Shown here in pieces: positions 1,110 to 15,172 of a stretch of 64,000 bases of DNA. The position numbers were made by a program, and so were the translations under genes. Numbering within the stretch: the stretch's first letter is position 1; each line of letters opens with the position of its first letter. The notes under the pieces were generated by a model, which did no database searches, was not told the DNA's origin, and was given only the letters and a program-made list of their open reading frames with translations. Origin of the DNA: a virus. Taxonomy: Duplodnaviria > Caudoviricetes. The stretch lies in IMG/VR virus record IMGVR_UViG_3300025314_000006, one strand, 5' to 3'.

Positions 1110-1565
1110 ATGAGAAACATCAGAAAAATGATAAGGAAAATCTTAATAGAGGAATCAAAACCCACGGTTGTTTATTCTGCTGTTGTTATTGAGAAACTTG
1201 AAGGTATTGGGAAGTTGGATTTGATTTTTAGTAAGTACATCGAAAACGGTTGGCAAAAACCGGTTCATTATCATATGACAATCGGACCGGGAAAATTTCC
1301 TGAGAGCTTGTATTTAAAAGGAGATTTAGATAAAGAAGTAACATTAGAAATAACGTCTGTAGGAATTTCAGAAAATGCTATAGCATTGGGAGTTTCAGGA
1401 TATTATTCAAGAAATGACAATCCACACATTACTATTGCTTTCAATAAAGAAAACGGAGGAAATCCGGAAGATAGCAAAGTGATTGAAAATTGGGGACATA
1501 TTGATAATTTTTATGTGACTGGAATAATAAGAGAAGTTGGCGAAAATAATTTAGTTATTAAATAA
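1110..1565 (+). CDS. 2H phosphoesterase (2',3'-cyclic phosphodiesterase, Trl1-CPD-like)
   Basis: Two HxT motifs (HYHMTI, NPHITIA) about 55 aa apart; N-terminal IRKMIRKILIEE leader. Confidence 0.75.
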   Translation: MRNIRKMIRKILIEESKPTVVYSAVVIEKLEGIGKLDLIFSKYIENGWQKPVHYHMTIGPGKFPESLYLKGDLDKEVTLEITSVGISENAIALGVSGYYSRNDNPHITIAFNKENGGNPEDSKVIENWGHIDNFYVTGIIREVGENNLVIK

Positions 1566-1569
1566 TTAG

Positions 1570-1648
1570 TACCTTCAATAGGATTCGAACCTACATTTTC
1601 AGCTCCGTTACACTTATTGAGTCCGTAGCTCAATGTGGCTATAAAGGC
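1570..1648 (-). tRNA. Atypical tRNA-like element, Arg(ACG) anticodon arm, no normal D-arm
   Basis: Acceptor GCCTTTA/TGAAGGT+A; canonical T-arm GTAGG-TTCGAAT-CCTAT; TTGAG-CTACGGA-CTCAA anticodon arm only 8 nt after the acceptor; 22-nt extra region. Confidence 0.55.
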
Positions 1649-1649
1649 A

Positions 1650-2336
1650 TTATATTAATTCATATCGTTTTGCCCACTTTCTCACCGCAACATCACTAAC
1701 TCCAAATTTTCTACCAAGTGCACAATATGAATTATTTTCTATCATTTCTTTTAATTCTTCTTTAGAGGGTCTGTTTTTTACTTTTCTAAAATTTAATCTA
1801 GGTACATATTTTCTCGTTGTTTTTTTATTTGTTTTATTTTTTTTTGCATTTTTTCTGTCTACGCCAATTTTACCACGGCAATGAGTTTCTAATGTGAAAT
1901 TGCAGTTTGGACATAAAAATCTTAAGTTTTCTAATCTATTATCATTATTTATTCCGTTTTCGTGGTCAATAATTAAACTAATTTTTTTACCTCTCCATAT
2001 TTCTCCTTGTCCACATTCTTTACATTCATATTCTATCATGTTATTATCTCGTATTCTTTTTTTTAAACAAGCCCTTGCAACAGAACTGTTTTCACAAAAA
2101 ATTTCTTCATCACTTTTCCTTAATAATCTGTCTTCATTAAACATTTTTTTAGCAAAATCACTACGGTTTAAAAAATGAGAAGTATCTATTGACCATTTAT
2201 TTAAATTTGTTTTAAGTATTTTATAAGATGAAGAAGAATCGCTTCTTCCAGATTTTACTATAACATCTCTAAATGTGATGCTTTCAGATACTAATTTTTG
2301 TAATTCTTCTTTTGTATATTCTTTATGTTCTTTCAT
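1650..2336 (-). CDS. HNH homing endonuclease
   Basis: CKECG...IDHENGINNDNRLENLRFLCPNC motif; C-terminal HTH; located inside the tRNA operon. Confidence 0.85.
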   Translation of the reverse strand: MKEHKEYTKEELQKLVSESITFRDVIVKSGRSDSSSSYKILKTNLNKWSIDTSHFLNRSDFAKKMFNEDRLLRKSDEEIFCENSSVARACLKKRIRDNNMIEYECKECGQGEIWRGKKISLIIDHENGINNDNRLENLRFLCPNCNFTLETHCRGKIGVDRKNAKKNKTNKKTTRKYVPRLNFRKVKNRPSKEELKEMIENNSYCALGRKFGVSDVAVRKWAKRYELI

Positions 2337-2393
2337 AATTCTAACTTATTTTAATGTAAATAGGTTAGAATTTTTTAATAAAGTAAATAGTTG

Positions 2394-2469
2394 AGGATAA
2401 GAAGAGAATTAAACTCCTGTTAAATATGTTTTGCAGACATATCCCGATTTCAACATTGGGTACTTATCC
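2394..2469 (-). tRNA. tRNA-Cys(GCA)
   Basis: GGATAAG/CTTATCC acceptor, U73; ATATGT-CT GCA AA-ACATAT anticodon arm. Confidence 0.85.
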
Positions 2470-2482
2470 TTGTAAAAATTAA

Positions 2483-2754
2483 AAAAGTAAAATCCTAAGT
2501 ATAGCCGCGATTTTGTTCTATCTCATCATTTATCTGAAGGTATTGCTACCAACTGGAGACTTTAAACGTCTACCACGCACCTACCCGACTATCAACAACG
2601 TAAAGGTTCCCCGTCTACAGTCTGTTTGGCTTGCATCCTATGTTGCGGAAGTACATACGCTATTTGTTATAGCTTCTTCCTCCTTTTAAAAGATGTCGCG
2701 AACTTCCTCTCGATTTTAAGAATCGAGCGATGAGTCCTTCAGGATTTTACTTTT
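2483..2754 (-). ncRNA. rnpB: RNase P RNA (catalytic subunit) with minimised specificity domain
   Basis: 14-bp P1 (AAAAGTAAAATCCT/AGGATTTTACTTTT); P2 CTCATC/GATGAG; P3 CTCGATT/AATCGAG; CR-I GAGGAAGTTCGCGAC pairing (P4) with CR-V ACAAAATCGCGGCTATA; CR-IV AGATAAATGAT; P18-like GGTA-GCAA-TACC. Confidence 0.85.
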
Positions 2755-2758
2755 CTTG

Positions 2759-2830
2759 AGGCTCCACTGACAATCGATGTCAGGACTCAAATTTACAAGA
2801 TTCGTGTTTTGCCACTTAAACTACGGAGCC
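2759..2830 (-). tRNA. tRNA-Thr(TGT)
   Basis: GGCTCCG/TGGAGCC acceptor; loop CT TGT AA; atypical T-loop ATCGATT. Confidence 0.85.
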
Positions 2831-2846
2831 ATTATTTGTTCTTATG

Positions 2847-2920
2847 TGGAATCTACCGGCATTGAACCGGTCTCTCAGGCGTGCAAGGCAAGTGTTCTAA
2901 GCCAAATGAACTAAGACCCC
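2847..2920 (-). tRNA. tRNA-Ala(TGC)
   Basis: GGGGTCT/AGATTCC acceptor with G3:U70; loop CT TGC AC; two mismatches in the anticodon stem. Confidence 0.8.
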
Positions 2921-2958
2921 AATTTAATTTGTTCAAAGTACAAATTATTAAAAACTTT

Positions 2959-3034
2959 TGGCGAGTATGACCGGTCCTGACCCGGCGACCTCCTCATAGA
3001 CAGTGAGGCATTCTTCCAACTGAACTACACACTC
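2959..3034 (-). tRNA. tRNA-Asp(GTC), CCA encoded
   Basis: CCTCA-CT GTC TA-TGAGG; G73; T-loop GTCAGGA. Confidence 0.85.
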
Positions 3035-3046
3035 ATTATTTTTTAA

Positions 3047-3355
3047 AAAAGTAAGACGCCATTTCGCTGATAGCGTTTTTTGTGTTCTGTTTAATGCGCC
3101 AAAGAACATCTGATTATGTTCAGCATTTAGCGTTCATGCTTGGTTATTATAACATACTAACATTCCTAATATTGTCTGATTACCTATTTTGAGTTTGCAT
3201 AGTAGGTTGATTTTTATTTCCAGGGTAAAAATCAACAAACAAACCTAACGTCTGATAAACTTTATTTTTCATCCGGTAAACGTTTTGTACATTGTTTAGT
3301 TCATTAGGCTAAAACAACACGTCTTTTTCACGGACAACATTAGTAACTTACTTTT
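3047..3355 (-). ncRNA. Unassigned structured RNA (~309 nt) between tRNA-Ile and tRNA-Asp
   Basis: 9-bp closing stem AAAAGTAAG/CTTACTTTT; 11-bp hairpin at 3206-3236; several smaller hairpins; four ATCAG motifs; no ORF in the track. Confidence 0.55.
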
Positions 3356-3359
3356 CTTG

Positions 3360-3433
3360 TAGTGCATCTGAGAATTGAACTCAGTACTTCCACGTTATCG
3401 GCGTGGCACTCTGGACCGATGAGTTAATGCACT
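3360..3433 (-). tRNA. tRNA-Ile(GAT)
   Basis: AGTGCAT/ATGCACT acceptor; CCACG-CC GAT AA-CGTGG (C33 instead of U33). Confidence 0.85.
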
Positions 3434-3447
3434 GTTTTTATTTAAAG

Positions 3448-3520
3448 TCTAGGTGGCCTGCTCCGACCAGGCGGTCTCCAGTTCCCAAAACTGGCGGATT
3501 TCCAACTTTCCCACACCTAG
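3448..3520 (-). tRNA. tRNA-Pro(TGG)
   Basis: CTAGGTG/CACCTAG acceptor; CCAGT-TT TGG GA-ACTGG; T-loop GTCGGAG. Confidence 0.85.
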
Positions 3521-3558
3521 AAATTTTGTTTATCTTTCCAAACTGTCTTTTAATAAGA

Positions 3559-3621
3559 GTTCAAGCTCGGTTATCCACCGATTCGAAGGACTGCATTAGC
3601 CTTCTCTGCAGACACTTGAAC
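3559..3621 (-). ncRNA. Compact structured RNA with an H-type pseudoknot
   Basis: GTTCAAG/CTTGAAC closing stem; interleaved CTGCA/TGCAG and GAAGG/CCTTC helices; TCGG-TGGATAA-CCGA hairpin. Confidence 0.5.
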
Positions 3622-3623
3622 AT

Positions 3624-3699
3624 TGGAGCGAAAAACCAGGTTCAAACTGGCGACCCCCAGAGTGGAAATCTGGCGCTCTATCAACTGAGCTATTTTCGC
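3624..3699 (-). tRNA. tRNA-Gly(TCC), CCA encoded
   Basis: GCGAAAA/TTTTCGC acceptor, U73; CCAGA-TT TCC AC-TCTGG. Confidence 0.9.
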
Positions 3700-3788
3700 T
3701 TATGTATATAATTCTCTCAGACCATATTACCAAGATTTACTTTGGACTCACCGTATTTTAAAAGTGAGCAGAATTGTATTTAATTAAA

Positions 3789-4736
3789 TTATTCTAATAA
3801 TAATTCATCAATTGTTAAAATTGAATTTAAATTATCTATTGTTTTTTTAAATATCATTTTAACATTAATGTTGTTTTGTTCTAATACTAAACTCATTTTT
3901 GTTTTATCTATTATTGAATAATATCCTTTAGTTTCTATGTATAAGTTAAAATTTGGCAAATAAAAATCTGGCACATACGTTTTTTCAACACCTTCTTTAA
4001 TATATTGAATATATATTTTTCTAATCCACAATATTTTATTGTCATTTAACCATTGCGACATTTTTAATTCATATTTTCCTCTTAAAGAATATTCTTCACC
4101 AATAATATTTTTTTGTTTATAAAATTTCACATGTTTAAAATTGTTACTTATTTCATTTTCTTCTAACATCTTGGAGTGAGATTTGCTAATTTTCGATTTT
4201 TGTTCAGAAGAAAGTGGCTTTCCTAATTGGTGATGTATTCTCTTACCAGTAGCATACATTTCTTTTTGTTGCTCAGATGCTTTATTTACCCTATTATCAG
4301 TTTCCTTTGTAAGTCCTCTTGACCATCCCATTTTTGATTTAGTCTCTGCATTACTGTATTTTTTATTTTTATATTCAACTCCATCCGGTGTATGCATTTG
4401 AAATATATGACCACATATACCAAGTTTGTGAAATATTAATTCGCAATGAGGACATTTATATTTATCTACATCAACTTTCCAAGATTCATCTACTGTTATT
4501 TGTTTTTTATTAACTGTATTACATTTATTATAATGCCTTTCAAAATTAGAAACAGAAATATTTTTATTACATTTATCACAACATTTTGTGTTTTTAGGTT
4601 TTCCAAGTAAAGAAATACTTAAATTTTTTAATCTTTCTTTTAACTTTGGATTAGATTCACAATTTACTATATGAGCACCAAATTGTTGTGGGATCTCAAA
4701 CTCAAAAGACTCTTTGCAATGCGGACAAGTTTTCAT
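3789..4736 (-). CDS. Putative homing endonuclease (Zn fingers, NUMOD-like region, PD-(D/E)xK C-terminal domain)
   Basis: CPHC zinc motifs; HHQLGKPLSSEQKSKIS NUMOD3-like stretch; YVPDFYLP...YIETKGY nuclease motif. Confidence 0.75.
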   Translation of the reverse strand: MKTCPHCKESFEFEIPQQFGAHIVNCESNPKLKERLKNLSISLLGKPKNTKCCDKCNKNISVSNFERHYNKCNTVNKKQITVDESWKVDVDKYKCPHCELIFHKLGICGHIFQMHTPDGVEYKNKKYSNAETKSKMGWSRGLTKETDNRVNKASEQQKEMYATGKRIHHQLGKPLSSEQKSKISKSHSKMLEENEISNNFKHVKFYKQKNIIGEEYSLRGKYELKMSQWLNDNKILWIRKIYIQYIKEGVEKTYVPDFYLPNFNLYIETKGYYSIIDKTKMSLVLEQNNINVKMIFKKTIDNLNSILTIDELLLE

Positions 4737-4805
4737 ACTTTTTTATTATAAATAGTATAAAAAATTGCAGGTTAGAAAATTGTTAGCACGTTATTGTTTT
4801 TTGAG

Positions 4806-4888
4806 TGGGAGTTGATGGAGACGAGCCACCCGAGTTTTAAAACAACCGATTTACAGTCGGTCCCGCTACCCCTACGGAATAAACTCCC
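4806..4888 (-). tRNA. tRNA-Tyr(GTA)
   Basis: GGGAGTT/AACTCCC acceptor; CCGA-CT GTA AA-TCGG; long variable arm; T-loop CTCGTCT. Confidence 0.85.
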
Positions 4889-4900
4889 ATTTTAATGTTG

Positions 4901-4972
4901 CACAGACGGTTATAATCGAAATAACTACGTGTAGTTTTTGGAGAACTCACCGACACCAAGCCTGTCGTCTGT
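4901..4972 (-). tRNA. tRNA-Trp(CCA)
   Basis: ACAGACG/CGTCTGT acceptor, G73; loop CT CCA AA. Confidence 0.8.
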
Positions 4973-5011
4973 ATTTTATCTATTTTTTAAGCTGTAAGAT
5001 AATTAGCTAAG

Positions 5012-5083
5012 TAGCGAAAACTGGAATCGAACCAATGTAGACACAGCTTATGAGACTGGTGGGAAACCAACATCCTTTTCGCA
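5012..5083 (-). tRNA. tRNA-Met(CAT), initiator-like
   Basis: Loop CT CAT AA; U1:U72 mismatch typical of initiators, but lacks the three G-C anticodon-stem pairs. Confidence 0.75.
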
Positions 5084-5096
5084 ATATATTTTTTTG

Positions 5097-5169
5097 TAGC
5101 CCCTGCCGGTCCTGACCCGACGACTTCATTCATGTAAAAAATGCACTCTACCAACTGAGTTAAGGGGCT
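5097..5169 (-). tRNA. tRNA-Val(TAC)
   Basis: AGCCCCT/AGGGGCT acceptor; CATTT-TT TAC AT-GAATG; T-loop GTCAGGA. Confidence 0.85.
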
Positions 5170-5174
5170 ATTAG

Positions 5175-5248
5175 TAGCATATATCAGAATCAAACTGATG
5201 ACCTTCCTCATATGAAAAGGACGCTCTAATCAACTGAGCTAATATGCT
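5175..5248 (-). tRNA. tRNA with CAT anticodon (elongator Met or lysidine Ile2)
   Basis: AGCATAT/ATATGCT acceptor; TCCTT-TT CAT AT-GAGGA. Confidence 0.8.
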
Positions 5249-5258
5249 ATTTAAAAAG

Positions 5259-5330
5259 AGCGGGTGATGAGGATTAAACTCACGGCCTCATCCTTGGCAA
5301 GGATGCGCTCTATCGCTGAGCTACACCCGC
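5259..5330 (-). tRNA. tRNA-Gly(GCC)
   Basis: GCGGGTG/CACCCGC acceptor, U73; CATCC-TT GCC AA-GGATG. Confidence 0.9.
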
Positions 5331-5403
5331 TTTTTTGATTATCAATATGTCAAATAACTCTGCAAACTTTTAAGTCATTGCTCGACTTGTAAACTTTTTA
5401 AGC

Positions 5404-5435
5404 AACAAAAAACCCGAACCTTTTTTAAGTCCGGG
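5404..5435 (-). terminator. Intrinsic terminator of attenuator 1, upstream of tRNA operon 1
   Basis: CCCGGACTT-AAAA-AAGGTTCGGG followed by TTTTTTGTT. Confidence 0.8.
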
Positions 5436-5475
5436 TGTGTTATGTTGTTTCCCTTTTAAGTTTTTATATCTTACT

Positions 5476-5604
5476 TCATGAAACAAAATGTTTTAACACA
5501 CCCATATTATCGCGGCTATAATCGCCAGGGGTAATACACGCATACCCGACTGTCGGCATGACTGCCCAAATCGTTGTAATTGTTGTATGTGTTAAATTTT
5601 TCAT
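5476..5604 (-). CDS. Attenuator leader peptide 1 (42 aa)
   Basis: MKNLTHTTITTIWAVMPTVGYACITPGDYSRDNMGVLKHFVS*; its GGGTGTGTTA (5494-5503) is complementary to TAACACACCC (5433-5442), which overlaps the terminator 5' arm. Confidence 0.75.
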   Translation of the reverse strand: MKNLTHTTITTIWAVMPTVGYACITPGDYSRDNMGVLKHFVS

Positions 5605-5684
5605 TGAAGATGTTTTCTTTTTAATTAAACTTAAATAGTATAAAAAATTATTTTCTCAAATATTTCTTTCGACCAATTATAACG

Positions 5685-5717
5685 CAAAGATATAATTAAA
5701 GTTTAATAAAAAGCAAA
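5685..5717 (-). promoter_or_regulatory. Bacteroidota primary-sigma promoter for leader 1 and tRNA operon 1
   Basis: TTTG (5714-5717), 21-nt spacer, TATCTTTG (5685-5692); a near-duplicate lies at 14052-14083. Confidence 0.75.
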
Positions 5718-5745
5718 TTTATTTTCATTTATTTTTTATTTAACT

Positions 5746-5810
5746 TGTAAAATCCTGATATTCAGCTAAATAATTTTTTGTAAAATCCTAAACATAATCG
5801 TAAAATCCTG
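5746..5810. repeat. Three direct repeats GTAAAATCCT just upstream of the operon-1 promoter
   Basis: Copies start at 5747, 5780 and 5800. Confidence 0.55.
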
Positions 5811-5916
5811 TCATTGATAATATTAAACAAAAAATCCACAATTTTTTTAAGCAAGGGAGCCAACGAATTTATTCGTTGGAGTATGTCAGTCAATAATATT
5901 TCCTTGCAATTTGTTT

Positions 5917-6120
5917 TTACCAACCTTCTTTAGCAACTCCGGATGCAACTGCAGCTTCTGCGTTAGCAGAGCTCATTATAGCACACATTTTATGTCCTTC
6001 TTTAGTTTCTCCTTTACATACGTATCCACCTTTTGCGTTTTTAGATATGATAGGATTAACGAAAGTTTGTTTGCTTTTTAATTTCATACAATATCCTTCT
6101 AATACGATTAATGTGCTCAT
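5917..6120 (-). CDS. Small DUF5679-like protein, paralog 1
   Basis: GYCMK...KGGYVCKGETKEGHKMCAI; similar to 7515-7715. Confidence 0.55.
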   Translation of the reverse strand: MSTLIVLEGYCMKLKSKQTFVNPIISKNAKGGYVCKGETKEGHKMCAIMSSANAEAAVASGVAKEGW

Positions 6121-6224
6121 GATTTTTAGTTTTAAGTTTTTTATAAATATGAAATATTTTATAAAACAAGTTTTAATATATGTTTATGTTCTAAATTAGC
6201 TTATATTTATATAAAAACAAGCTC

Positions 6225-6395
6225 ATGAAAAATTTAAAAAAAATAATAGAAGAAACAGTAAGTAAAGTTCTGGGTGAAGGCGATTTTTTAACACATCAAA
6301 TAAAAAATTCAATAAGCGTGTTAAATAATGTTTTCAAAGACAACTTAGTTGCAAAGATAAACGAAACAAATGATAAAGATAAACGAAACAAATGA
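6225..6395 (+). CDS. 56-aa N-terminal segment cut off from the downstream ORF by a 22-bp tandem duplication
   Basis: MKNLKKIIEETVSKVLGEGD...; AAAGATAAACGAAACAAATGAT occurs twice (6353-6374, 6375-6396). Confidence 0.6.
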   Translation: MKNLKKIIEETVSKVLGEGDFLTHQIKNSISVLNNVFKDNLVAKINETNDKDKRNK

Positions 6396-6978
6396 TAGTG
6401 TTATTGATGTTTATATTAAGAAATACAATATAAATGCATTAACAAAAATAGATAAAACGATAGAAAATTTAGGATATTTTATTTCTATTTTTAGTATAAA
6501 TGGATTTCAAAAGAAATTTAACAAAGATTCATTTTTTAAAAAAATAAAAGACTTAAAAGAATTAACTCCAATATACCTAAAGCTGGAGAAAAAAATGGAC
6601 TCAAATGAAGATATAGATACAATTATCCCATCTATGTTATATCACATTACACATGAAAGACATCTCGCAAAAATCAAGAAAATAGGTTTAGTTCCAAAAT
6701 CTAAATCTAAAAAATCAGCTCATCCTGAAAGAATATATTTAGCGTGGAATGAAGAATCTGCTATAAAATTAGTAAAAGAATTTTCAGATTTAGAATACGA
6801 ATTTGAACATAATTATGTTTTATTAAAAATTGACACAAGTAAAATTTCTGAGTTTAGACGTGATAAAAATTTCAAATTACATAATGACCCAAACTTTACA
6901 GATGGTTATTTTACATATGATAATATACCTCCTGCTGCAATAAATTTTGAAAATATGAAATTAATAAACCTTGAATAA
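6370..6978 (+). CDS. Tpt1/KptA-like RNA 2'-phosphotransferase or ADP-ribosyltransferase-fold protein
   Basis: LYHIT...IKKIGLVPK...HPERIYLA...VLLKID...DGYFTYDNIPP motifs. Confidence 0.6.
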   Translation: MIKINETNDSVIDVYIKKYNINALTKIDKTIENLGYFISIFSINGFQKKFNKDSFFKKIKDLKELTPIYLKLEKKMDSNEDIDTIIPSMLYHITHERHLAKIKKIGLVPKSKSKKSAHPERIYLAWNEESAIKLVKEFSDLEYEFEHNYVLLKIDTSKISEFRRDKNFKLHNDPNFTDGYFTYDNIPPAAINFENMKLINLE

Positions 6979-7510
6979 TATGAGTTTGTTAGAAAAAATT
7001 AAAATAGAAAGATTTATTTCGGAAGATATTGACGAAGTTAAACAGTTAATTAAAAACATACATTCAAAAATCTGTTTTAATGAAACAAATATTCACATTT
7101 ATAATAATTTAATGTATAAACTTTTTTTTAACGGTTATAGTTTTCTTTTGGATTTTTCATTAAAAGTAACATATAGAAAAAAAATAATAGGAGTTATGTT
7201 ATTATCTGACTTTTCGTTTTATTGGCTATTAGAAACATATAAAGAAGATGACAAAAACATAAGCAAAAAAATAAAAAAATATAAGAACAAAGAAGGTTTA
7301 AGGAGTGTTTTTTTTGGAATTGATAGGAAATATCAAAAAAAAGGATTAGGCTCTAAAATGATTGAATATATACAAAAAAACTATAAGCAGTTTGATTATT
7401 TGTGGGGAATTCAACATAAAGAGATTTCAAATATGGAATTTTTCTTAAAAAGAAGAAAAGTTGTTGCAGAAATAGGAAATTCCGTATATACTGTGCAGGA
7501 TTTGAAATAA
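6971..7510 (+). CDS. GNAT-family acetyltransferase
   Basis: FGIDRKYQKKGLGSKMI acetyl-CoA-binding motif A. Confidence 0.75.
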   Translation: MNNMSLLEKIKIERFISEDIDEVKQLIKNIHSKICFNETNIHIYNNLMYKLFFNGYSFLLDFSLKVTYRKKIIGVMLLSDFSFYWLLETYKEDDKNISKKIKKYKNKEGLRSVFFGIDRKYQKKGLGSKMIEYIQKNYKQFDYLWGIQHKEISNMEFFLKRRKVVAEIGNSVYTVQDLK

Positions 7511-7514
7511 AAGC

Positions 7515-7715
7515 TTAAAACCCTTCTTTAGTAACTCCAGATGCTACGGCAGCTTCTGCGTTGGCTTTACTCATTAATAGACTCATCTTATGTCCATCTT
7601 TACTTTCGCCCTTTGCAATGTACCCACCCTTTTTAGTTAAGCTAATAACAGCATTAACCATTACTCCCTTTGATTTTGTCTTAAGACAATAAGCCTCTAA
7701 TACTACTTTTTCCAT
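7515..7715 (-). CDS. Small DUF5679-like protein, paralog 2
   Basis: AYCLK...KGGYIAKGESKDGHKM...ANAEAAVASGV, shared with 5917-6120. Confidence 0.55.
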   Translation of the reverse strand: MEKVVLEAYCLKTKSKGVMVNAVISLTKKGGYIAKGESKDGHKMSLLMSKANAEAAVASGVTKEGF

Positions 7716-7753
7716 TTTTTTTGGTTTTATAGTAAATATTAAAAATTTTTATT

Positions 7754-8101
7754 TTAAGTCGGTGATGTTATTAATTGAAATTTAGTAGGATGCGACAATC
7801 TATAATCAACTTGTCTTTCATCAACATATTCTCGATAATTAACATAACCTTTAACATATGGAGTTACGCGAGCATCGAAAAAAATAACATCTCCGTTATT
7901 TAACGCTCCTAATTTCTCAAATCCTTTTGTTTTGTTAAACCACAAATGGTCAGTAACAATTTTATCAGACTTATCCTTAATATCTTTTAAGAGTATTGTT
8001 TCTACAGGATATCCATGATAATTCTTCTTTGTTCCAAATTTCTCAAATATTCCACTAAATCTGTCCCGTATATTTTCTATTTTTTCTAAATCTTTTCTCA
8101 T
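7754..8101 (-). CDS. Hypothetical protein
   Basis: 115-aa ORF whose start overlaps the nadD stop. Confidence 0.65.
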   Translation of the reverse strand: MRKDLEKIENIRDRFSGIFEKFGTKKNYHGYPVETILLKDIKDKSDKIVTDHLWFNKTKGFEKLGALNNGDVIFFDARVTPYVKGYVNYREYVDERQVDYRLSHPTKFQLITSPT

Positions 8102-8670
8102 TGATAAAACCCTTTTCTTTTTATATAATTAGCAACTTGCGGTGCTAAAAAATCTTTCACATCTCTATTTTCCTTTATCTCGTTTCGGATAAATGTGGAA
8201 GACATTTCAATTAAATTAACATCAAACATTTTTACTTTTGGATGTAAAATTAGATTACCGCCATCGCTGGAGCTACGTGAATATACATAAATTTGATATT
8301 CTTCAAGTATTTTTTGATAATCTTTCCACTTGTGTAAGTTTTCTAAATTATCAGTTCCCATTATTATAACAAATTCATTTTCTTTAAATGTTTCTTTTAA
8401 TAAATTGAGCGTATCTATAGTATACGAAGGTTTTGATAAATTAAATTCAATATCACTGGCTCTCATATGTTCATTATCAATTAATGCCATATTAACCATT
8501 TTTAACCTTTCTTTTTCTGATAGTAGAGAATTTTTATCCTTGAGAGGATTGTGAGGAGATATTATAAACCACACACATTCCAATTCGGTATGTTCAAGCA
8601 TGTAAGACGCCAATATTGTGTGACCGTTGTGGATTGGATTAAAACTACCGAAGAATAAACCTATTTTCAT
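8098..8670 (-). CDS. nadD: Nicotinate/nicotinamide mononucleotide adenylyltransferase
   Basis: KIGLFFGSFNPIHNGH (HxGH), SPHNPLK, PSYTIDTL, IMGTDN, MSSTFIR; likely start is ATG 8670. Confidence 0.92.
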   Translation of the reverse strand: MKIGLFFGSFNPIHNGHTILASYMLEHTELECVWFIISPHNPLKDKNSLLSEKERLKMVNMALIDNEHMRASDIEFNLSKPSYTIDTLNLLKETFKENEFVIIMGTDNLENLHKWKDYQKILEEYQIYVYSRSSSDGGNLILHPKVKMFDVNLIEMSSTFIRNEIKENRDVKDFLAPQVANYIKRKGFYQ

Positions 8671-8752
8671 ATGTGATATTATTAAACGAAGATAATCATT
8701 ATAATGTTGCAACTAACTTTTTTAAACTATTTATTGAAAAAAGAAATATAAA

Positions 8753-10126
8753 ATGAATAATAAAGAACTAAGAAAATCGATAAGAAGGATTTTAAAGGAA
8801 AATCTTGAAAATTCTGATTGGGTGAATGCCAGTGATGCTCAAAAAGCTGCAATGCAAGATATAGACTCAGAAGATGAATTTGAACACTTAGGAACTAATA
8901 GGTTTGAAAAAGATTTTGATGTTGAAGATTTTCTATATGATTTAGAAGCTCAAAAAAATATGTCTGAGCCATCTGTAAAAAGATTAGAAAAACAAATTGG
9001 GCAATTAAAAAGATTTGGAAAGGGTTCTTTGAATGAATTATCGCCAGAAATAAGACAATCCGCACTTAAAAAAGCTGTTGATTATATTGAACAACCTGGA
9101 GATACCTATCATAAAGACCCGCTCCAATATATTAAGAAAAAAAACCAAGCAAATTCATTTATTTCTCATGTTAATCCTGAGTTAAAAAAAGAAGCTATGG
9201 AAATAGCAAAAATGATAGATGTAAATTGTGAAAGTCGTATAGAAAAAGAAGCGGTAGGAAGTACACTTGAACCAAATGTTGTATTATATTTTGGTCAAAA
9301 CATTGCAGATTTAAGTAATCAAATACTTAAAATTGCCATTAAAAAAGATAATCATACATGGGAAACCAAAAAATTTATTCCTGAAAATATTCAAAGAAGA
9401 TTGGCTAATTTTATAAAAAAGATTCAAACAAAAGAAATATCTAGTCCAGTTAAACAATTGAATGAGAGATTTCTTGGTGGATGGCATTATTTCGCAACTC
9501 CAGAAGGTAAAGAAGAATATATTAAAGACCTCGAGTCTAAAAAGATTAATGCAAAAGGAGAAGAATTAGAGCAAATTGAAAAAGAACTTAAAAAGTTAAA
9601 ATCAATAAAACCAAAATCCTTAAAAGAAGAAACATCAAAACTTGACAAGCCAAAAGATTCTGCAGGAAATTCAATATCATCCGGAGTGAGAGTTGAAGAT
9701 TTAGAGTCGGGTAGTGCTGGACGAGTTGAGAGATTTGGTATTGACGACAAAGGACAATTAACAGTTCATGTTGCTTGGATAACAAAATATGGACAGATAG
9801 CTCCAAAGTCCATTGTTTATCCCAAAAATATAATTGTTAAAGATTCTGCAAAAAAGATAACAGACGAAGGAATTAAAGATACTTTAAAAAATATTTATAA
9901 AGAATTGAATCCTATTGAAAAATGGAAACAAATGAAAGAAAATCGTAAAAAGCTCGAAAAAGAAGTTAGTGATTTACGAAGAGAAGTTTCTGAAAAGGAA
10001 AAAGAATTAGAAAAAATAGTGAATAGTAATCATATTAAAGCTGATGTAAGTAATGATGTTGACGAAGGAATTGGAGCTGGATTATCACTTCCAATAAAAA
10101 AAGGAGCCGGAAGCAGATTTAAATAA
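8753..10126 (+). CDS. Hypothetical protein, putative protease-processed virion polyprotein
   Basis: N-terminal LRKSIRRILKE; internal SLNE, QLNE and SLKEE linkers; TATTTAT at 8728-8734. Confidence 0.6.
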   Translation: MNNKELRKSIRRILKENLENSDWVNASDAQKAAMQDIDSEDEFEHLGTNRFEKDFDVEDFLYDLEAQKNMSEPSVKRLEKQIGQLKRFGKGSLNELSPEIRQSALKKAVDYIEQPGDTYHKDPLQYIKKKNQANSFISHVNPELKKEAMEIAKMIDVNCESRIEKEAVGSTLEPNVVLYFGQNIADLSNQILKIAIKKDNHTWETKKFIPENIQRRLANFIKKIQTKEISSPVKQLNERFLGGWHYFATPEGKEEYIKDLESKKINAKGEELEQIEKELKKLKSIKPKSLKEETSKLDKPKDSAGNSISSGVRVEDLESGSAGRVERFGIDDKGQLTVHVAWITKYGQIAPKSIVYPKNIIVKDSAKKITDEGIKDTLKNIYKELNPIEKWKQMKENRKKLEKEVSDLRREVSEKEKELEKIVNSNHIKADVSNDVDEGIGAGLSLPIKKGAGSRFK

Positions 10127-10133
10127 AACTATT

Positions 10134-11147
10134 TTGGAAAATAAGTTAAGAAAATATATTCAAAAAATCCTTCAAGAATCTTTAAATACAGAAGACATTC
10201 CTGAAGACATCCCCATTAAAAAAGATTTAAAATTCACTGAGACCTCAAGAGGTTCGCATCATGGCCAGCAGGATTTAACAGCTTATGCCACAATAGAGGG
10301 AATAGTAGTTGGCTATGTTGAATATTCTATATTTCAGAACGAAATCCACATAGAAATGATTGAAGTTGTTGAAGAACAAAAAAGACAAGGAATAGCAACA
10401 AAATTATTTCATTTTATAAGACTTAAAAATTCTGGTATGAAAATTATTCCAGGATATTCAACCGAAGAAGGAAGTAAATTTTATAATGCTTATAAAAGCA
10501 AAAAACTAAAAGAAGATATAAATGTTCCTATAAATGTTGGAGATACCGTTCTTGGTGGCCGTTTTAAAAATAAAAAAATTATTATTAAAGATATAGGAAA
10601 GTCAGATAAGGGCGACATTACAATTAATGACAAGCCTCTTTTAAAAGTTAGGATTCCAAAGAAAATAAATGAAGAAAAATTGACATGTTTATATATTCAT
10701 GGTTTAGGAGCTGAAATATCTGATGATATTAAAAATTCTCTTTCCAAATACAATCTCATATATCCCAAAATAAACTACGACAAAACAACAAAACCATATT
10801 ATCAATGTTTAGAAATATTAAATAAAGATAAGGTGGATTTTATAATAGGTCATTCTATAGGTGGAGTTATGGGTTATTATTTAGCTAAAGAAACAAATAT
10901 TCCAGCTTTATTATTATGTCCGGCATTTGGAGATGAATATAAAGTTCTCACAAGTAAGTTAGTTAAAGATAATAACCCAAAAATAGTTGTTATCATAGGA
11001 AAAAAAGATGATGAAGTTGATAATAAAAAAGTTAAATCCACTTTAGAAAATCAACCCAATTGTGTTATTAAAGAATTAAATATCGGACATGATATTACAG
11101 AAAAAAATCTGATTTTATTTGCTGATGGTTTTGTTGAAAATTTATAA
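10134..11147 (+). CDS. Multidomain protein: GNAT, small module, alpha/beta-hydrolase (YqiA-like)
   Basis: KRQGIATKL GNAT motif; YIHGLG and GHSIGG nucleophile elbow; domains separated by KLKED and KINEE. Confidence 0.75.
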   Translation: MENKLRKYIQKILQESLNTEDIPEDIPIKKDLKFTETSRGSHHGQQDLTAYATIEGIVVGYVEYSIFQNEIHIEMIEVVEEQKRQGIATKLFHFIRLKNSGMKIIPGYSTEEGSKFYNAYKSKKLKEDINVPINVGDTVLGGRFKNKKIIIKDIGKSDKGDITINDKPLLKVRIPKKINEEKLTCLYIHGLGAEISDDIKNSLSKYNLIYPKINYDKTTKPYYQCLEILNKDKVDFIIGHSIGGVMGYYLAKETNIPALLLCPAFGDEYKVLTSKLVKDNNPKIVVIIGKKDDEVDNKKVKSTLENQPNCVIKELNIGHDITEKNLILFADGFVENL

Positions 11148-11174
11148 TTGAAATTATTATTTTTTAATATAAAG

Positions 11175-11247
11175 TGCTTCCAGTTGGACTTGAACCAACG
11201 ACCCGAAAATTAAGAATTTCCTACTCTACCATCTGAGCTATGAAAGC
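11175..11247 (-). tRNA. tRNA-Lys(CTT)
   Basis: GCTTTCA/TGGAAGC acceptor; loop TT CTT AA. Confidence 0.85.
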
Positions 11248-11335
11248 AATAATTTATAATGTATTATAGATATATGTTGAGTAAAATCCACAGAATGTTC
11301 TATTTTATGGATTGTGCTCAACAAATATGTAATTG

Positions 11336-11409
11336 TGTGTCCGACAAGATTTGAACTTGTGACCTCCGCATTAAAAGTGCGGTATTCTAACCAGCTGAAT
11401 TACGAACAC
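11336..11409 (-). tRNA. tRNA-Lys(TTT)
   Basis: GTGTTCG/CGGACAC acceptor; CCGCA-CT TTT AA-TGCGG. Confidence 0.9.
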
Positions 11410-11413
11410 ATAG

Positions 11414-11500
11414 TGTACCCAGAAAGATTCGAACTTTCAACGGCCTTTCGGCTCCCCACAGGGTAAAAACCTGTTGCTCTACCAATTGAGCCATGGGTAC
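11414..11500 (-). tRNA. tRNA-Lys(TTT) with a long variable arm
   Basis: GTACCCA/TGGGTAC acceptor; ACAGG-TT TTT AC-CCTGT; 19-nt variable region with a GCC-GAAA-GGC hairpin. Confidence 0.8.
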
Positions 11501-11504
11501 AAAT

Positions 11505-11536
11505 AAAAAAGCCTGAATCTACACAGAGACTCAGGC
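11505..11536 (-). terminator. Intrinsic terminator of attenuator 3, 4 nt before the first tRNA-Lys
   Basis: 10-bp stem GCCTGAGTCT/AGATTCAGGC followed by TTTTTT. Confidence 0.85.
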
Positions 11537-11556
11537 TTTTTGGACTTATAAAAAAG

Positions 11557-11622
11557 TCAATGAGCTATCGTCCCCGGAGACCAGGGTTTCTTAGATTTTT
11601 TTATTTTGATTATTGTTAACAT
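11557..11622 (-). CDS. Attenuator leader peptide 3 (21 aa, Lys-rich)
   Basis: MLTIIKIKKSKKPWSPGTIAH*; five Lys codons in seven (four AAA, one AAG). Confidence 0.75.
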   Translation of the reverse strand: MLTIIKIKKSKKPWSPGTIAH

Positions 11623-11733
11623 TTTGTTTATTTTTTTAAATTAAAAAGAGCCCACACTCAACTGGTGGCTAATTTTTATGAACGAGTATTACCCAAGTTC
11701 TGTCATCCACTATGACAAATTTCTATTGTTATT

Positions 11734-12086
11734 TTAACCTTGAATATCTTGACATTCCGTGATGTTATAGGTCTTTATAAAATCCTTACCATCAGTTATT
11801 ATTAAATCCAAGTTACTTGAATAGTACCCGTTATTAGAACCGTGTCCAGCTATTTTTACAGAATGTCCTTGTATTGGAATTAATTCAATTCCGTAATCAG
11901 GAATTCTTTTGAAGAAATCATCATTTGTTAAATCAAATTCTAATCCTTCAAATCAGCGATTGTTAAATCATCTAATGTTAATGAATGTGATTCACAACAA
12001 TCTGATTCATGATTTGAATATAACTTTACTTCATTTTCAAATTCAATTGCATCTGAGTCAACTTTTACTACTTTTAATTTGTTCAT
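11734..12086 (-). pseudogene. Conserved-looking phage hypothetical gene with a 1-nt frameshift near 11948
   Basis: First frame ends ...ADLKD* at 11940; the shifted frame continues EGLEFDLTNDDFFKRIPDYGIELIP...GHGSNNGYYSSNLDL...* to 11734. Confidence 0.6.
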
Positions 12087-12102
12087 TTTATTTATGTTTT
12101 TG

Positions 12103-12176
12103 GGTGCTATATCGGCTACGACCCGATTACCTTCTGTACCACAAACAGACACTCTACCAATTGAGCTAATAACACC
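12103..12176 (-). tRNA. tRNA-His(GTG)
   Basis: Encoded G-1:C73 pair; TCTGT-TT GTG GT-ACAGA; T-loop GTCGTAG. Confidence 0.85.
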
Positions 12177-12189
12177 ATATTAAATTTGT

Positions 12190-12960
12190 TTAAAATACAA
12201 ATTTTAAGACTTTAATATTATTTACTTTTTCACTATATCCAAAATTTCTAATTTCATCATGTATTTCTATGTGACAATTTGCACAAACCATAATACATTT
12301 ATCAACTTCTACTTTTAATCTTTCAAAACCATAAGATTTGCCACCAATAGTAAAATCTTTTTCACTTGGATTTGTATGATGAAATTGTAAAACTGATGTT
12401 GATTTATTATATCCACAACATTCACATTTCCATCCTTTATATTCAATTAATCTAATTTTACTTCTTTTTCTCCAATCTATAACAGCCTGACTTTTGGTTT
12501 TAGTTTTTTGTCTTTTTTTATTTGTTTTAATCAAATCATCAGAAATGTAATTTCTAATTGTTGTCCTATCTACCTTAAAATAAGCGGCTGTTTTTCTTAA
12601 AGACTTACTTTCTATATAAAAATTAACAACTTCTATTTCAATAAGTTCTTTTTTCTTAAATGTACCACTTGATTTATTTAATCCATACAAATTACATATT
12701 TTAATTAACTTATCTTCTCCAATGTCCAAAATTGACCTTATTTCGTCATAGCTTTTCAATTCTCTTCTGTAAGCAATTATTTTGTTTATAACTTCATCAG
12801 TTATTCCAATTAAAAAACTGTTTCTTACTCCGCCAAGTCCAACATTATTTATGTGATAAGACACAGTGCTTTTTGAACACTTTAATTGTTCAACTATTTC
12901 TTTTATAGTTGAGCCTTTTTCTCTTAAAGAGATAATTTTATTTTTCAAACCTTTATCCAT
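12190..12960 (-). CDS. HNH homing endonuclease with N-terminal HTH repeats
   Basis: KCECCGY...LQFHH...CIMVCANCHIEIH; likely start MDKGLK at 12960. Confidence 0.85.
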   Translation of the reverse strand: MDKGLKNKIISLREKGSTIKEIVEQLKCSKSTVSYHINNVGLGGVRNSFLIGITDEVINKIIAYRRELKSYDEIRSILDIGEDKLIKICNLYGLNKSSGTFKKKELIEIEVVNFYIESKSLRKTAAYFKVDRTTIRNYISDDLIKTNKKRQKTKTKSQAVIDWRKRSKIRLIEYKGWKCECCGYNKSTSVLQFHHTNPSEKDFTIGGKSYGFERLKVEVDKCIMVCANCHIEIHDEIRNFGYSEKVNNIKVLKFVF

Positions 12961-13031
12961 ATTATTAACTTTATTTGTTAATAAATATGGGATAAAATTC
13001 AAAAAAACAAAATTTATTTCAAAGAACGTTG

Positions 13032-13103
13032 CGGACCCGCCTGGACTTGAACCAGAAAACGCAGATTAACAATCTGAAGTGATACCAATTTCACCACAGG
13101 TCC
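13032..13103 (-). tRNA. tRNA-Asn(GTT)
   Basis: GGACCTG/CGGGTCC acceptor, G73; loop TT GTT AA. Confidence 0.85.
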
Positions 13104-13109
13104 CAATAT

Positions 13110-13430
13110 TTATTTTTTAATTTCTTCTTTAGTAATAGAATCACCAACCTCTATTACTTTGCCAAAAACTTTTTTTGTCCAACCATTTATTCCTCCTTTA
13201 TTATTTCCTATTAAACAACCTTTTTGTGCATTAATTGCTTTTACTAAATGTGTGTAGAAATTGCCGTGCACTTTCGCATAGACTATATCTCCTACTTTAA
13301 CTTCATCTATTGTAATTGGGGCAATTTTATGTTCTTGTCCCGACTTAATTAAAGGAACCATTGAGTTTCCTTTTTCACTGGTGACGAAAGTCTCACCGTT
13401 TTGTAATCTTTCTAATTTATAATTTCTCAT
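13110..13430 (-). CDS. S24/S26 peptidase-like protein
   Basis: KGNSMVPLI...VGDIVY motif. Confidence 0.6.
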   Translation of the reverse strand: MRNYKLERLQNGETFVTSEKGNSMVPLIKSGQEHKIAPITIDEVKVGDIVYAKVHGNFYTHLVKAINAQKGCLIGNNKGGINGWTKKVFGKVIEVGDSITKEEIKK

Positions 13431-13446
13431 TTTTTATTATTTGTTT

Positions 13447-13535
13447 TGGCGGAAAACGGGCAAATCGAATACCATTCAAATTAACGAACCTCTCGCTTAG
13501 CAGGCGGAGACAACTCCCTGGTTGTTTCGTTTTCC
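13447..13535 (-). tRNA. tRNA-Ser(GCT), CCA encoded
   Basis: Loop CT GCT AA; long variable arm; G73. Confidence 0.85.
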
Positions 13536-13562
13536 ATTTATTATTTCAAAGAACATTTTTTG

Positions 13563-13648
13563 CAGAGGCTAAGAGAGTTCAACTCTTACAACCTTTTCAA
13601 GTCCTAGCTATTTTCAAGATAGTGTACCTCCGTCAACTGGGAGCCTCT
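13563..13648 (-). tRNA. tRNA-Ser(TGA)
   Basis: AGAGGCT/AGCCTCT acceptor, G73; CTAT-CT TGA AA-ATAG; long variable arm. Confidence 0.85.
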
Positions 13649-13727
13649 ATGTTTGCCTATTAACTCTATCACTCACCTAAACGGTGGATTACAGAACTTC
13701 GGCAGGATTTTATTCCTGTTCAGTTAG

Positions 13728-13804
13728 TGGAGATTGCCAGAATTGAACTGGCGTTAATTTCACGGTTCTTCAAACCGCAGCTAGACCGTCTCAGCTAAAT
13801 CTCC
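13728..13804 (-). tRNA. tRNA-Phe(GAA)
   Basis: GGAGATT/AATCTCC acceptor; GCGGT-TT GAA GA-ACCGT. Confidence 0.85.
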
Positions 13805-13825
13805 ATTATTTTCAAAAAACGTTAT

Positions 13826-13860
13826 AAAACAAAAAACCCGAACTCTTTTGTAAGTCCGGG
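13826..13860 (-). terminator. Intrinsic terminator of attenuator 2
   Basis: CCCGGACT-TACAAAAG-AGTTCGGG followed by TTTTTTGTTTT; near-identical to 5404-5435. Confidence 0.8.
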
Positions 13861-13889
13861 TGTGTTTATGTTGTTTTAATTTTAATCTT

Positions 13890-13979
13890 TTACGATTCAA
13901 AAGGACAATACACACCCGCTCGGCTTTTATTACTAAAACTCGATTTGTTAAAATGCTTATGTGTATTATTTGTTGTCAT
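13890..13979 (-). CDS. Attenuator leader peptide 2 (29 aa)
   Basis: MTTNNTHKHFNKSSFSNKSRAGVYCPFES*; CGGGTGTGT (13910-13918) is complementary to ACACACCCG (13857-13865). Confidence 0.75.
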   Translation of the reverse strand: MTTNNTHKHFNKSSFSNKSRAGVYCPFES

Positions 13980-14051
13980 TTTGTATTCTTAATATTCTTT
14001 AAATAGTATAAAAAATTATTTTTCTAAAAATTCTTATTATCAATTATAACG

Positions 14052-14083
14052 CAAAGATATAATTAAAGTTTCAAAAAAGCAAA
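14052..14083 (-). promoter_or_regulatory. Bacteroidota primary-sigma promoter for leader 2 and tRNA operon 2
   Basis: TTTG, 20-nt spacer, TATCTTTG. Confidence 0.75.
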
Positions 14084-14121
14084 TTTATTTTGATTTATTT
14101 TTTATTTCATTAAAAAAGGTA

Positions 14122-14401
14122 TCTCGGGTTTTCTGATAATTTGCCGTTGTCATACTGATTAGAGTCGAACTAATCGTGTTGCGTTTCTACATTTCTACAA
14201 TTTACATTTTTACAAAGTCGGCCTTTTTGATTCTATTGCCTTTTCCATAAGGATGTCTTGTGAGACTTGTTTTTTGTATTTATCTCCTTTCGAAGTTAAT
14301 TACTATGAACGTTTTTTAGAAACTTTCTTGAAACTATCTGGTGTATCGTCACCTGAACCTATCCGGTAAATGTTGCCGGAACCATCCATACTGGCCCGAG
14401 A
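14122..14401 (-). ncRNA. Candidate ~280-nt structured RNA directly downstream of the coiled-coil gene
   Basis: 7-bp closing stem TCTCGGG/CCCGAGA; CCGG/CCGG and GGTG/CACC hairpins; T-arm-like GATTAG-TTCGACT-CTAATC (14157-14175); four TGTARA repeats. Confidence 0.5.
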
Positions 14402-14407
14402 ATGTTT

Positions 14408-14944
14408 TTATTCAGAACTCATAAGAGATTCTAAATCTACATGAGAAAAAGAAAGCTCTATTGTTTTTTGATTTAATATTTCAATTTCATTTTGAGTGGT
14501 TCTGTACTTTGTTTTGAAGTGTGAAATTTTACTTTTCACTTCCGTAGAAGTAACAGCCGGAATATATTCAACTTTTATTGATTTTCTTGTTCCGTTTCCA
14601 AGGTTCTCAAATTTTGTTGTTTTTGTTGGTTTAGTGCGAGCTAATGCATTTTCATAAATTGATAATAGCAATTTGTTATTATGCATAGAGCGAACTTTAT
14701 TGTCTACTTGATTTTCTTTGTTAAAAGAAGAAATCTTTGAATTTATTTCTTCAGAAAATCCAAGGGCTTTTTCCAAACGAGAAACAGCTTCTCCAAATTT
14801 TTTAATATCTGCCTCATCAGTAATGACCTGGTCATCTTCTTTAGTTGAACCAAGTGGAGCTCTAAAAGTTTCACTTTGAATAGATTGAACTGATTTAGAA
14901 ATTTCATTTTTAAGTCTTAGTGCTTCTGATACAGTAATGTTCAT
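14408..14944 (-). CDS. Coiled-coil protein (DIP1984/DUF6847-like)
   Basis: N-terminal SEALRLKNEI and C-terminal QNEIEILNQKT pattern; own promoter TTTG-19-TACATTTG at 14979-15009. Confidence 0.5.
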   Translation of the reverse strand: MNITVSEALRLKNEISKSVQSIQSETFRAPLGSTKEDDQVITDEADIKKFGEAVSRLEKALGFSEEINSKISSFNKENQVDNKVRSMHNNKLLLSIYENALARTKPTKTTKFENLGNGTRKSIKVEYIPAVTSTEVKSKISHFKTKYRTTQNEIEILNQKTIELSFSHVDLESLMSSE

Positions 14945-15160: not shown

Positions 15161-15172
15161 TTTTTTGTTTTT

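Follow-up and report, generated by a model that had tools for sequence, protein, structure and literature searches.

What decides when a phage transcribes its own transfer RNA (tRNA) genes? The usual view of tRNA genes is that growth rate and the stringent response set their expression through the promoter; the reasons for which phages carry tRNAs, and the uses to which they put them, are still a matter of debate. The question is raised by a 64,000-nucleotide (nt) stretch of the IMG/VR virus record IMGVR_UViG_3300025314_000006 (hereafter the window), which comes from a huge uncultured phage and whose minus strand carries three units, each made up of a short open reading frame (ORF), a switchable segment, an intrinsic terminator, and a block of tRNA genes. 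We consider it likely that the units are three ribosome-mediated (leader-peptide) transcription attenuators that gate the phage tRNA genes. The proposal is built on the anatomy of the units, its conservation, the match between leaders and tRNAs, and alternative pairings formed in silico; from these we infer translation of the leaders, coupling of transcription to translation, and a response to tRNA supply. A preliminary description, made from the window alone, had read the units as codon-matched leader-peptide attenuators, and this core reading is supported both by the composition of leaders in relatives and by folding of the nascent RNA.

In the proposed mechanism, transcription would start upstream of the short ORF, and a ribosome would translate the ORF as RNA polymerase advances. 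A ribosome that reaches the last codons would cover the 5′ strand of the antiterminator, the terminator would form, and the tRNA genes would stay silent. A ribosome that stalls anywhere within the first two thirds of the ORF would leave that strand free to pair with the 5′ arm of the terminator, and the tRNA block would be transcribed. The early codons are nearly all decoded by tRNAs encoded downstream, and each unit would therefore regulate the supply of the tRNAs it encodes by negative feedback; in leaders with many amino acids, scarcity of any single species would be enough. Leader 3 may be reached by read-through from unit 2, in which case the Lys tRNAs would be gated twice, and such double gating would account for the three Lys codons in leader 2.

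Leader reading frames and their switches

The layout outlined in the preliminary description, a short ORF, a pairing segment, and a terminator before each tRNA block, was found in place for all three blocks. On the minus strand, the leader 1 ORF (positions 5476-5604) has 42 codons, the leader 2 ORF (13890-13979) has 29, and the leader 3 ORF (11557-11622) has 21, and all three stop 20-40 nt ahead of their terminators. Recounting the codons reproduced the earlier figures. In leader 1, 26 of the 28 codons from 5 to 32 fall within the 12 amino acids carried by the tRNAs of operon 1 (a tentative Arg counted), all 12 are represented, and K, N, E, Q, L, and F do not occur. Leader 2 specifies Asn, His, Phe, Ser, or Lys at 15 of the 16 codons from 4 to 19, and leader 3 has Lys at five of seven codons (KIKKSKK, codons 6-12). 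Units 1 and 2 are paralogous: they have a common upstream block of ~95 nt and near-identical terminators around wholly different ORFs. As a test of chance, the in-set run score of each leader was set against those of the window's 402 ORFs that begin with ATG and have 15-70 codons. No other small ORF reached the score of leader 1, and that of leader 2 was unique with Lys counted (10 of the 402 reach it without Lys).

A terminator scan placed the hairpin of terminator 1 at 5436-5412, that of terminator 2 at 13861-13836, and terminator 3 at 11541-11506, all on the minus strand and each a hairpin with a T-tract; they lie 8-80 nt ahead of the first tRNA, with stabilities of -13 to -17 kcal/mol. The unit 1 antiterminator would be formed by GGGTGTGTTA (5494-5503, minus strand), which occupies leader codons 34-37, and TAACACACCC (5442-5433, in the element 5407-5442), which overlaps the 5′ arm of terminator 1; the duplex of the two is worth -15 kcal/mol. 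Its counterpart in unit 2 pairs CGGGTGTGT (13910-13918, minus strand; leader codons 21-24) with 13865-13857 (in the element 13830-13865), overlapping terminator 2, at about -15 kcal/mol. The unit 3 switch (11506-11575, minus strand) has a weak antiterminator helix of -5.7 kcal/mol, the two strands of which would be GGGGAC (11575-11570) and GTCTCT (11530-11525), the latter lying within the 5′ arm of terminator 3.

Equilibrium folding with the full terminator hardly separates ribosome positions, since the terminator usually wins, and we therefore modeled the nascent RNA, folded through the 5′ arm of the terminator with the 3′ arm left out and with the bases covered by the ribosome blocked for each position of its aminoacyl site (A-site). 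In unit 1 the antiterminator probability was 0.97 with the A-site at codons 1-30, 0.12 at codon 31, and about 0 at codons 32-41; in unit 2 it was 0.97-0.98 at codons 1-16, 0.88 at codon 17, and about 0 at codons 18-27; and in unit 3 it was about 1 at codons 9-12 and 0 at codons 14-22. The modeled antiterminator would thus exclude the terminator and be masked by a ribosome at the end of the ORF. The edges between permissive and blocked zones coincide with the ends of the matched codon stretches: in-set codons make up 24/29 of the permissive zone against 6/12 of the blocked zone in leader 1, 13/16 against 3/12 in leader 2 (Lys counted), and 5/12 against 0/8 in leader 3. The Gln, Ser/Tyr/Leu, and ten-amino-acid leaders of relatives described below gave a like pattern by a related measure, the pairing of the terminator 5′ arm.

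Leader composition and tRNA cargo in relatives

Six sequences in IMG/VR match the exact terminator motif of units 1 and 2, and all six matches lie directly upstream of tRNA arrays. One of the matching contigs is a complete phage of 518,809 base pairs with terminal repeats and 55 Rfam tRNA matches. A looser pattern comprising the antiterminator and the terminator core (12 stretches in IMG/VR, 42 in metagenomes) yielded 45 distinct elements, the window's own two and 43 elsewhere. Twenty-five of these are upstream of tRNAs, 22 with a tRNA within about 400 nt and 3 with one about 890 nt away past an inserted ORF; the remaining elements are chance matches or lie on short contigs. In these loci, every terminator preceding a tRNA was inspected regardless of its sequence. 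The antiterminator core was fixed by the search pattern and is hence invariant among the relatives retrieved, and the stems of their terminators differ by compensatory changes (for instance, CCCGGAC/GTTCGGG, CCCTGGC/GTCAGGG, CCCGAAAC/GTTTCGGG, and CCCTGCA/TGCAGGG).

The 519-kb phage has homologs of leaders 1, 2, and 3 and carries 48 tRNA genes behind five units; set against the 55 Rfam tRNA matches in its genome, this number suggests that the units are the main control of tRNA expression in this phage group. Leader 1 homologs of 43-46 codons precede similar operons in L001, L003, L006, L043, and L044. In L008 and L011, homologs of leader 2 precede Phe-Ser-Asn-His blocks and homologs of leader 3 (KKKKK, then PW..GTIA) precede five tRNA-Lys genes. 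The motif led to 21 distinct homologous leaders, each with an uninterrupted ORF that stops 20-35 nt before the 3′ strand of the antiterminator. The distance from ATG to antiterminator is 113, 107, 104, 101, 77, 71, or 62 nt, in every case 2 modulo 3, and two length classes, 34 and 57 nt, are exceptions to this frame. Peptide sequences diverge freely among relatives yet remain inside the amino acid set of the operon, a pattern that fits selection on codon identity and reading frame and not on peptide or RNA sequence alone. Conservation of the leader ORFs, on which the preliminary description had let its reading depend, is therefore what the relatives display, the ORFs staying open and in frame.

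The preliminary description had also proposed comparing leader codons with operon tRNA content in related phages, and the match holds in that comparison, down to the isoacceptor. In the 519-kb phage, codons 9-15 of one leader are seven Gln codons (six CAA, one CAG) before three Gln(UUG) and one Gln(CUG) genes. Another of its leaders has the core CTA AGA CAA TTA GTG TTA GAA CAA CTT ATA GAA before an operon of Leu(UAA), Arg(UCU), Leu(CAA), Met, Glu(UUC), Ile(UAU), Leu(UAG), Glu, Glu(CUC), and Leu(AAG), so that CTA is matched by Leu(UAG), AGA by Arg(UCU), TTA by Leu(UAA), GAA by Glu(UUC), CTT by Leu(AAG), and ATA by Ile(UAU). Other contigs add to these cases. A run of 14 codons solely for Ser, Tyr, and Leu precedes Leu, Leu, Ser, Ser, and Tyr genes, and an operon for just the ten amino acids Q, H, P, A, S, M, G, L, T, and R follows a leader in which every one of them occurs and 30 of 36 codons are in-set. 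In the phages G003 and G006, a leader with many ATA and AGA/AGG codons stands ahead of Ile(UAU) and Arg(UCU) genes; for leaders whose cargo includes Ile(GAU) and Arg(ACG), ATT and CGC/CGT are the usual choice. Because this usage tracks the anticodons, the match is at the level of isoacceptors.

Cargo varies among the units and leader composition varies with it. The block 1 homolog of the G003 group comprises Ala, Tyr, Gly, Trp, Pro, Ile, Arg, Thr, and Cys, with all nine represented in its leader. In G003 itself, the core of this type-1 leader lacks M, V, and D; the relatives L032 and L014 retain one D just before the antiterminator, and L014 one M there as well. The Asp, Val, and Met tRNAs of this group are in the other operon, whose type-2 leader has Asp codons; its Val codons are ambiguous, one being inside the antiterminator. 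For 12 nonredundant units, the best in-set run of each leader against its own operon was compared with 20,000 operon shuffles. At the amino acid level the observed value was 131 (shuffle mean 55, maximum 116), and at the level of strict codon-anticodon pairing it was 75 (mean 36, maximum 74); none of the 20,000 shuffles reached the observed value at either level.

Two groups of related elements were seen beside these. In the G003/G006 group (L060, i.e., G006:26500-43500 on the reverse strand, at ~3724-4400, and L010 at 5436-6440), a Ser-Lys-Asn-His-Asp attenuator is followed by an ORF of ~170 codons and then by tRNAs; with this ORF between switch and tRNAs, the switch there would gate a protein gene too. 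Two contigs from metagenome-assembled genomes (MAGs) of Bacteroidia (L065 at 6120-6600 and L068 at 4460-5300) hold elements with a like antiterminator and terminator core, in which a leader containing Phe and Cys codons precedes tRNA-Phe, and L068 also has tRNA-Cys farther downstream. The elements may belong to the host, or the contigs may be of phage origin and have been binned together with their host.

Competing explanations and known attenuators

Several observations weigh against control by attenuation. Leader 3 on its own is ordinary, an equal Lys run being present in 78 of the 402 small ORFs, because Lys, the commonest residue, makes up 11% of the proteome; the window by itself backs two of the three units, and unit 3 requires comparative support. 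Off-set residues occur in leader 1 (His and Ser) and in leader 2 (Thr, and Lys as well unless unit 3 is nested). Leader 1 has most of its amino acids one to three times, which would make its sensitivity low compared with the codon runs of the his or leu leaders. One member of its cargo is tentative: the tRNA at 1570-1648 is backed by Rfam (34.6 bits), and its reading as Arg(ACG) by ARAGORN requires a 5-nt insert to be allowed in the anticodon loop. Many relatives share ancestry, so the 12 units of the permutation do not amount to 12 independent events, the events being fewer than the loci. Equilibrium folding with the full terminator prefers the terminator in most states, always so for unit 3 and the two relatives so folded, although with the ribosome at some early codons it is down to a probability of about 0.6 (unit 1) or 0.4 (unit 2), so that switching would have to be mostly kinetic. 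Equilibrium preference for the terminator is common among attenuators. In the truncated model of units 1 and 2, the antiterminator forms even without a ribosome, so that an untranslated leader might read through. An anti-antiterminator or pause hairpin (1:2) appeared in full-length folds of unit 2 and of the Ser/Tyr/Leu relative and was not evident in unit 1, and by these folds a classical anti-antiterminator would be weak or absent in units 1 and 2. None of the public RNA sequencing runs contains the phage, and the one run with a small matching share matched just 31 nt inside an HNH ORF.

The same attenuators could have been selected for a different reason. It is possible, though we think it rather unlikely, that they are damage sensors, as the preliminary description inferred: a host anticodon nuclease such as PrrC or AriB, or another tRNA-depleting defense, would remove any one species and the stalled ribosome would induce the replacement set. 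On this view one can further picture the multicopy Lys and Gln units aimed at the tRNAs most often attacked. This account is compatible with the attenuation mechanism and differs in the selective reason. Single copies of many codons suit all-or-none loss of a tRNA better than a mild amino acid shortage, and the dedicated single-amino-acid units are those for Lys and Gln, which have 5 and 4 gene copies in the 519-kb relative and are both among the known targets of anticodon nucleases. However, no sequence feature links the units to a defense system, the abundance of Lys in the proteome lets plain demand account for the Lys copies, and feedback between supply and demand, or temporal control, would yield identical anatomy.

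Two further explanations dispense with the stalled ribosome, and both are far less probable. In T-box-like direct sensing, the in-frame codons would bind anticodons as specifiers and the ORF would be incidental. A codon-anticodon match would be expected here too, but an Rfam scan of positions 1-16000 at E values up to 1 found no T-box or other known cis-regulatory family in the leaders, the sole leader match being L10_leader at chance level (27.7 bits against a cut-off of 44). Each leader moreover has an ATG and an open frame, with its stop at a fixed distance from the switch, and leader lengths change by multiples of three; we know of no T-box precedent for up to 26 consecutive specifier-like codons. 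We rejected this mechanism, of which we think very little, on the lack of an Rfam match and the conserved reading frame. Least probable of all is an account in which the terminators act constitutively as leaky boundaries, the small ORFs yield micropeptides or are translated for some other purpose, and the match is a by-product of composition. Leader 3 taken alone would be ordinary in a Lys-rich, AT-rich genome, and leader 1 is made of amino acids whose codons are GC-richer, a bias that also favors RNA structure. Against this, the AT-rich leaders (Gln, Lys, Asn/His/Phe/Ser, Leu/Ser/Tyr, and ATA/AGA) fit their own cargo too, and on this ground GC composition was rejected as a confounder of the leader 1 match; the operon shuffles never reached the observed match, and the peptides diverge while keeping to the amino acid set of their operon.

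As an instance of ribosome-mediated attenuation, the proposed control belongs to a known class of mechanism; what is new is the tRNA-gene target, the breadth of up to 12 amino acids, the matching at isoacceptor level, and the phage setting. The units resemble the trpL, hisL, leuL, thrL, and pheL attenuators in having a short, codon-enriched leader ORF, an intrinsic terminator ahead of the first gene, and an alternative antiterminator pairing that draws its upstream strand from the 3′ end of the ORF. Nearest in logic is the ilvGMEDA leader (Ile/Val/Leu), which, like that of thr, responds to several amino acids at once. Unlike these systems, the units are phage-borne, would control tRNA genes (with inserted endonuclease ORFs) in place of biosynthesis or synthetase genes, span up to 12 amino acids with mostly one to three codons each, match their cargo down to isoacceptor codons (ATA or ATT, AGA or CGC), and, in units 1 and 2, show no clear anti-antiterminator. 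The Escherichia coli pheST attenuator, with its pheM leader peptide, likewise controls a component of the translation apparatus in response to the charged cognate tRNA, but it governs an aminoacyl-tRNA synthetase and senses one amino acid, whereas here the regulated product would be the molecule sensed. T-box riboswitches also read tRNA status through a terminator/antiterminator switch before translation-related genes, but they bind uncharged tRNA directly, through one specifier codon and the conserved T-box and without translation, in contrast to the conserved leader ORFs found here. The tRNA clusters of T4, T5, phiCbK, and huge phages are similar in that tRNA arrays are interspersed with homing-endonuclease ORFs.

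The preliminary description knew of no case of codon-matched attenuators on tRNA genes, and our literature search, whose incomplete coverage makes this absence of evidence only, likewise found no description of leader-peptide attenuators before tRNA genes. Caulobacter phage phiCbK (L062, JX100813: 46800-53200) offers a partial match in a cultured system. Rho-independent terminators are annotated immediately before three of its tRNA blocks, and small ORFs before two of these blocks partly match the cargo. An ORF with the core QFVRQIQVVRNI precedes Phe-Val-Ile-Ile-Val-Gln-Gln-Gly, and gp083, a hypothetical protein of 45 amino acids, precedes Pro-Pro-Lys-Lys-Leu-Leu-Leu-Ser-Ser.

If attenuation does gate these operons, it represents a new regulatory logic, in which the ribosome tests the supply of a tRNA and the outcome decides whether the gene for that tRNA is transcribed; the classical attenuator would have been turned upon the translation apparatus itself. 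The units would then offer a natural set of orthogonal, codon-specific sensors, and their leaders would let sequence alone show which tRNAs a phage handles as a single supply unit.

Promoters, host, and gene content of the window

Candidate promoters were found upstream of leaders 1 and 2 on the minus strand. That of unit 1 (5685-5717) consists of TTTG at 5717-5714 and TATCTTTG at 5692-5685, with a predicted start near 5680, and that of unit 2 (14052-14083) of TTTG at 14083-14080 and TATCTTTG at 14059-14052, with a predicted start near 14047. The block is identical in the two units (TTTG, a 20-21-nt spacer, and TATCTTTG), and that of unit 1 is kept before the homologous leaders of L001, L003, and L006. 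Both candidates agree with the Bacteroidetes -33/-7 promoter consensus, TTTG/TAnnTTTG (PMC6847099). With 8 matches where 4.8 are expected, the pattern TTTG..TAHHTTTG shows no enrichment in the window, and the promoter calls therefore rest on conservation; an exact 21-mer of the common block is absent from IMG/VR. Three of the seven motif matches in reference genomes are in Bacteroidia MAGs, each followed by tRNAs, and a Bacteroidota host is likely on such sequence evidence. Leader 3 is without the promoter block common to units 1 and 2, and in relatives its homolog comes after block 2 with one ORF between.

Two further conserved segments flank the leaders. The 5′ untranslated regions of leaders 1 and 2 and of relatives contain, between the candidate promoter and the ATG, a conserved box (..AATAATTTTTTATACTATTTAA..; 5626-5655 and 13996-14026, minus strand), which may serve as another promoter, of phage type, or bind a protein. 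Terminator 1 and the first tRNA are separated by a spacer of ~75 nt (5331-5405, minus strand) that is conserved in L001, L003, and L006; it has a small hairpin, AAGTC..GACTT, followed by ..AAAAGTTTGCA....TTTGACATATTG.., and units 2 and 3 are without such a spacer. An internal promoter here, if present, would weaken control by the attenuator.

The tRNA genes of the window are all on the minus strand and span 1570-13804, with endonuclease-type ORFs inserted between them. ARAGORN reported 16 with default settings and, with relaxed settings, a second Met(CAU) and genes for Trp(CCA), Tyr(GUA), and Ser(GCU), all with regular cloverleafs. Block 1 (1570-5330) runs, in order of transcription, Gly(GCC), Met, Val, Met, Trp, and Tyr; an ORF with a Phage_endo_I domain (4736-3789); Gly(UCC), Pro, Ile(GAU), Asp, Ala, and Thr; an RNA resembling that of ribonuclease P (RNase P; 2747-2486); Cys; an ORF with a weak HNH match (2336-1650); and the tentative Arg(ACG) at 1648-1570. 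Block 2 (12102-13804) comprises Phe (13804-13727), Ser(UGA) (13648-13562), Ser(GCU) (13535-13447), Asn (13103-13031), and His (12175-12102); the anticodon of Ser(UGA) was assigned by eye, and the relative L011 has Ser(UGA) in the corresponding position. Two minus-strand ORFs lie inside this block (13430-13110 and 13002-12190), the latter with HTH/NUMOD1 domains and an HNH-like part. Block 3 (11174-11500) holds two Lys(UUU) genes and one Lys(CUU), found by ARAGORN and Rfam.

The RNase P RNA-like element (2486-2747, minus strand), between tRNA-Thr and tRNA-Cys, matches RNaseP_bact_a with 39 bits (Rfam cut-off 100; E value 2e-9 over 16 kb). It keeps P1-P4 and the catalytic-core motifs GAGGAA..UC, CGGGUA, AGAUAAAUG, and ACAAAAUC, the specificity domain being mostly missing; a miniature RNase P RNA encoded by the phage is one possibility. 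The element was sought in three relatives (L003, L008, and L011) and not found there.

The remaining gene content of the window is phage-like and includes an SNF2 helicase, ribonucleotide reductase, a family A polymerase, DnaB, and NUMOD3 endonucleases. When 14 kb was compared by megablast with 50,697 phage records, the sole match was one of 75 nt, in HNH, and a search of sequencing runs located the phage DNA in metagenomes from soil, sediment, and groundwater. Homing-endonuclease-type ORFs (NUMOD3, Phage_endo_I, and HNH) are dispersed across the window, and the DnaB-like helicase (40516-41865, minus strand) has at its C-terminal end a weak match to an intein-splicing domain. Two ORFs bear in-frame tandem repeats: 16 copies of a 66-nt unit (55927-56982) in ORF 54097-57747 (1216 amino acids), and units of 72, 84, and 156 nt (58534-59216) in ORF 58156-59457; neither ORF has a match in Pfam. 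CRISPR-like mini-arrays at 27997-28176 and 47165-47414 have three and four copies, respectively, of a repeat of ~36 nt at a spacing of 66-69 nt, and the 300-nt flanks that precede them (27619-27918 and 46787-47086) are 90% identical to each other.

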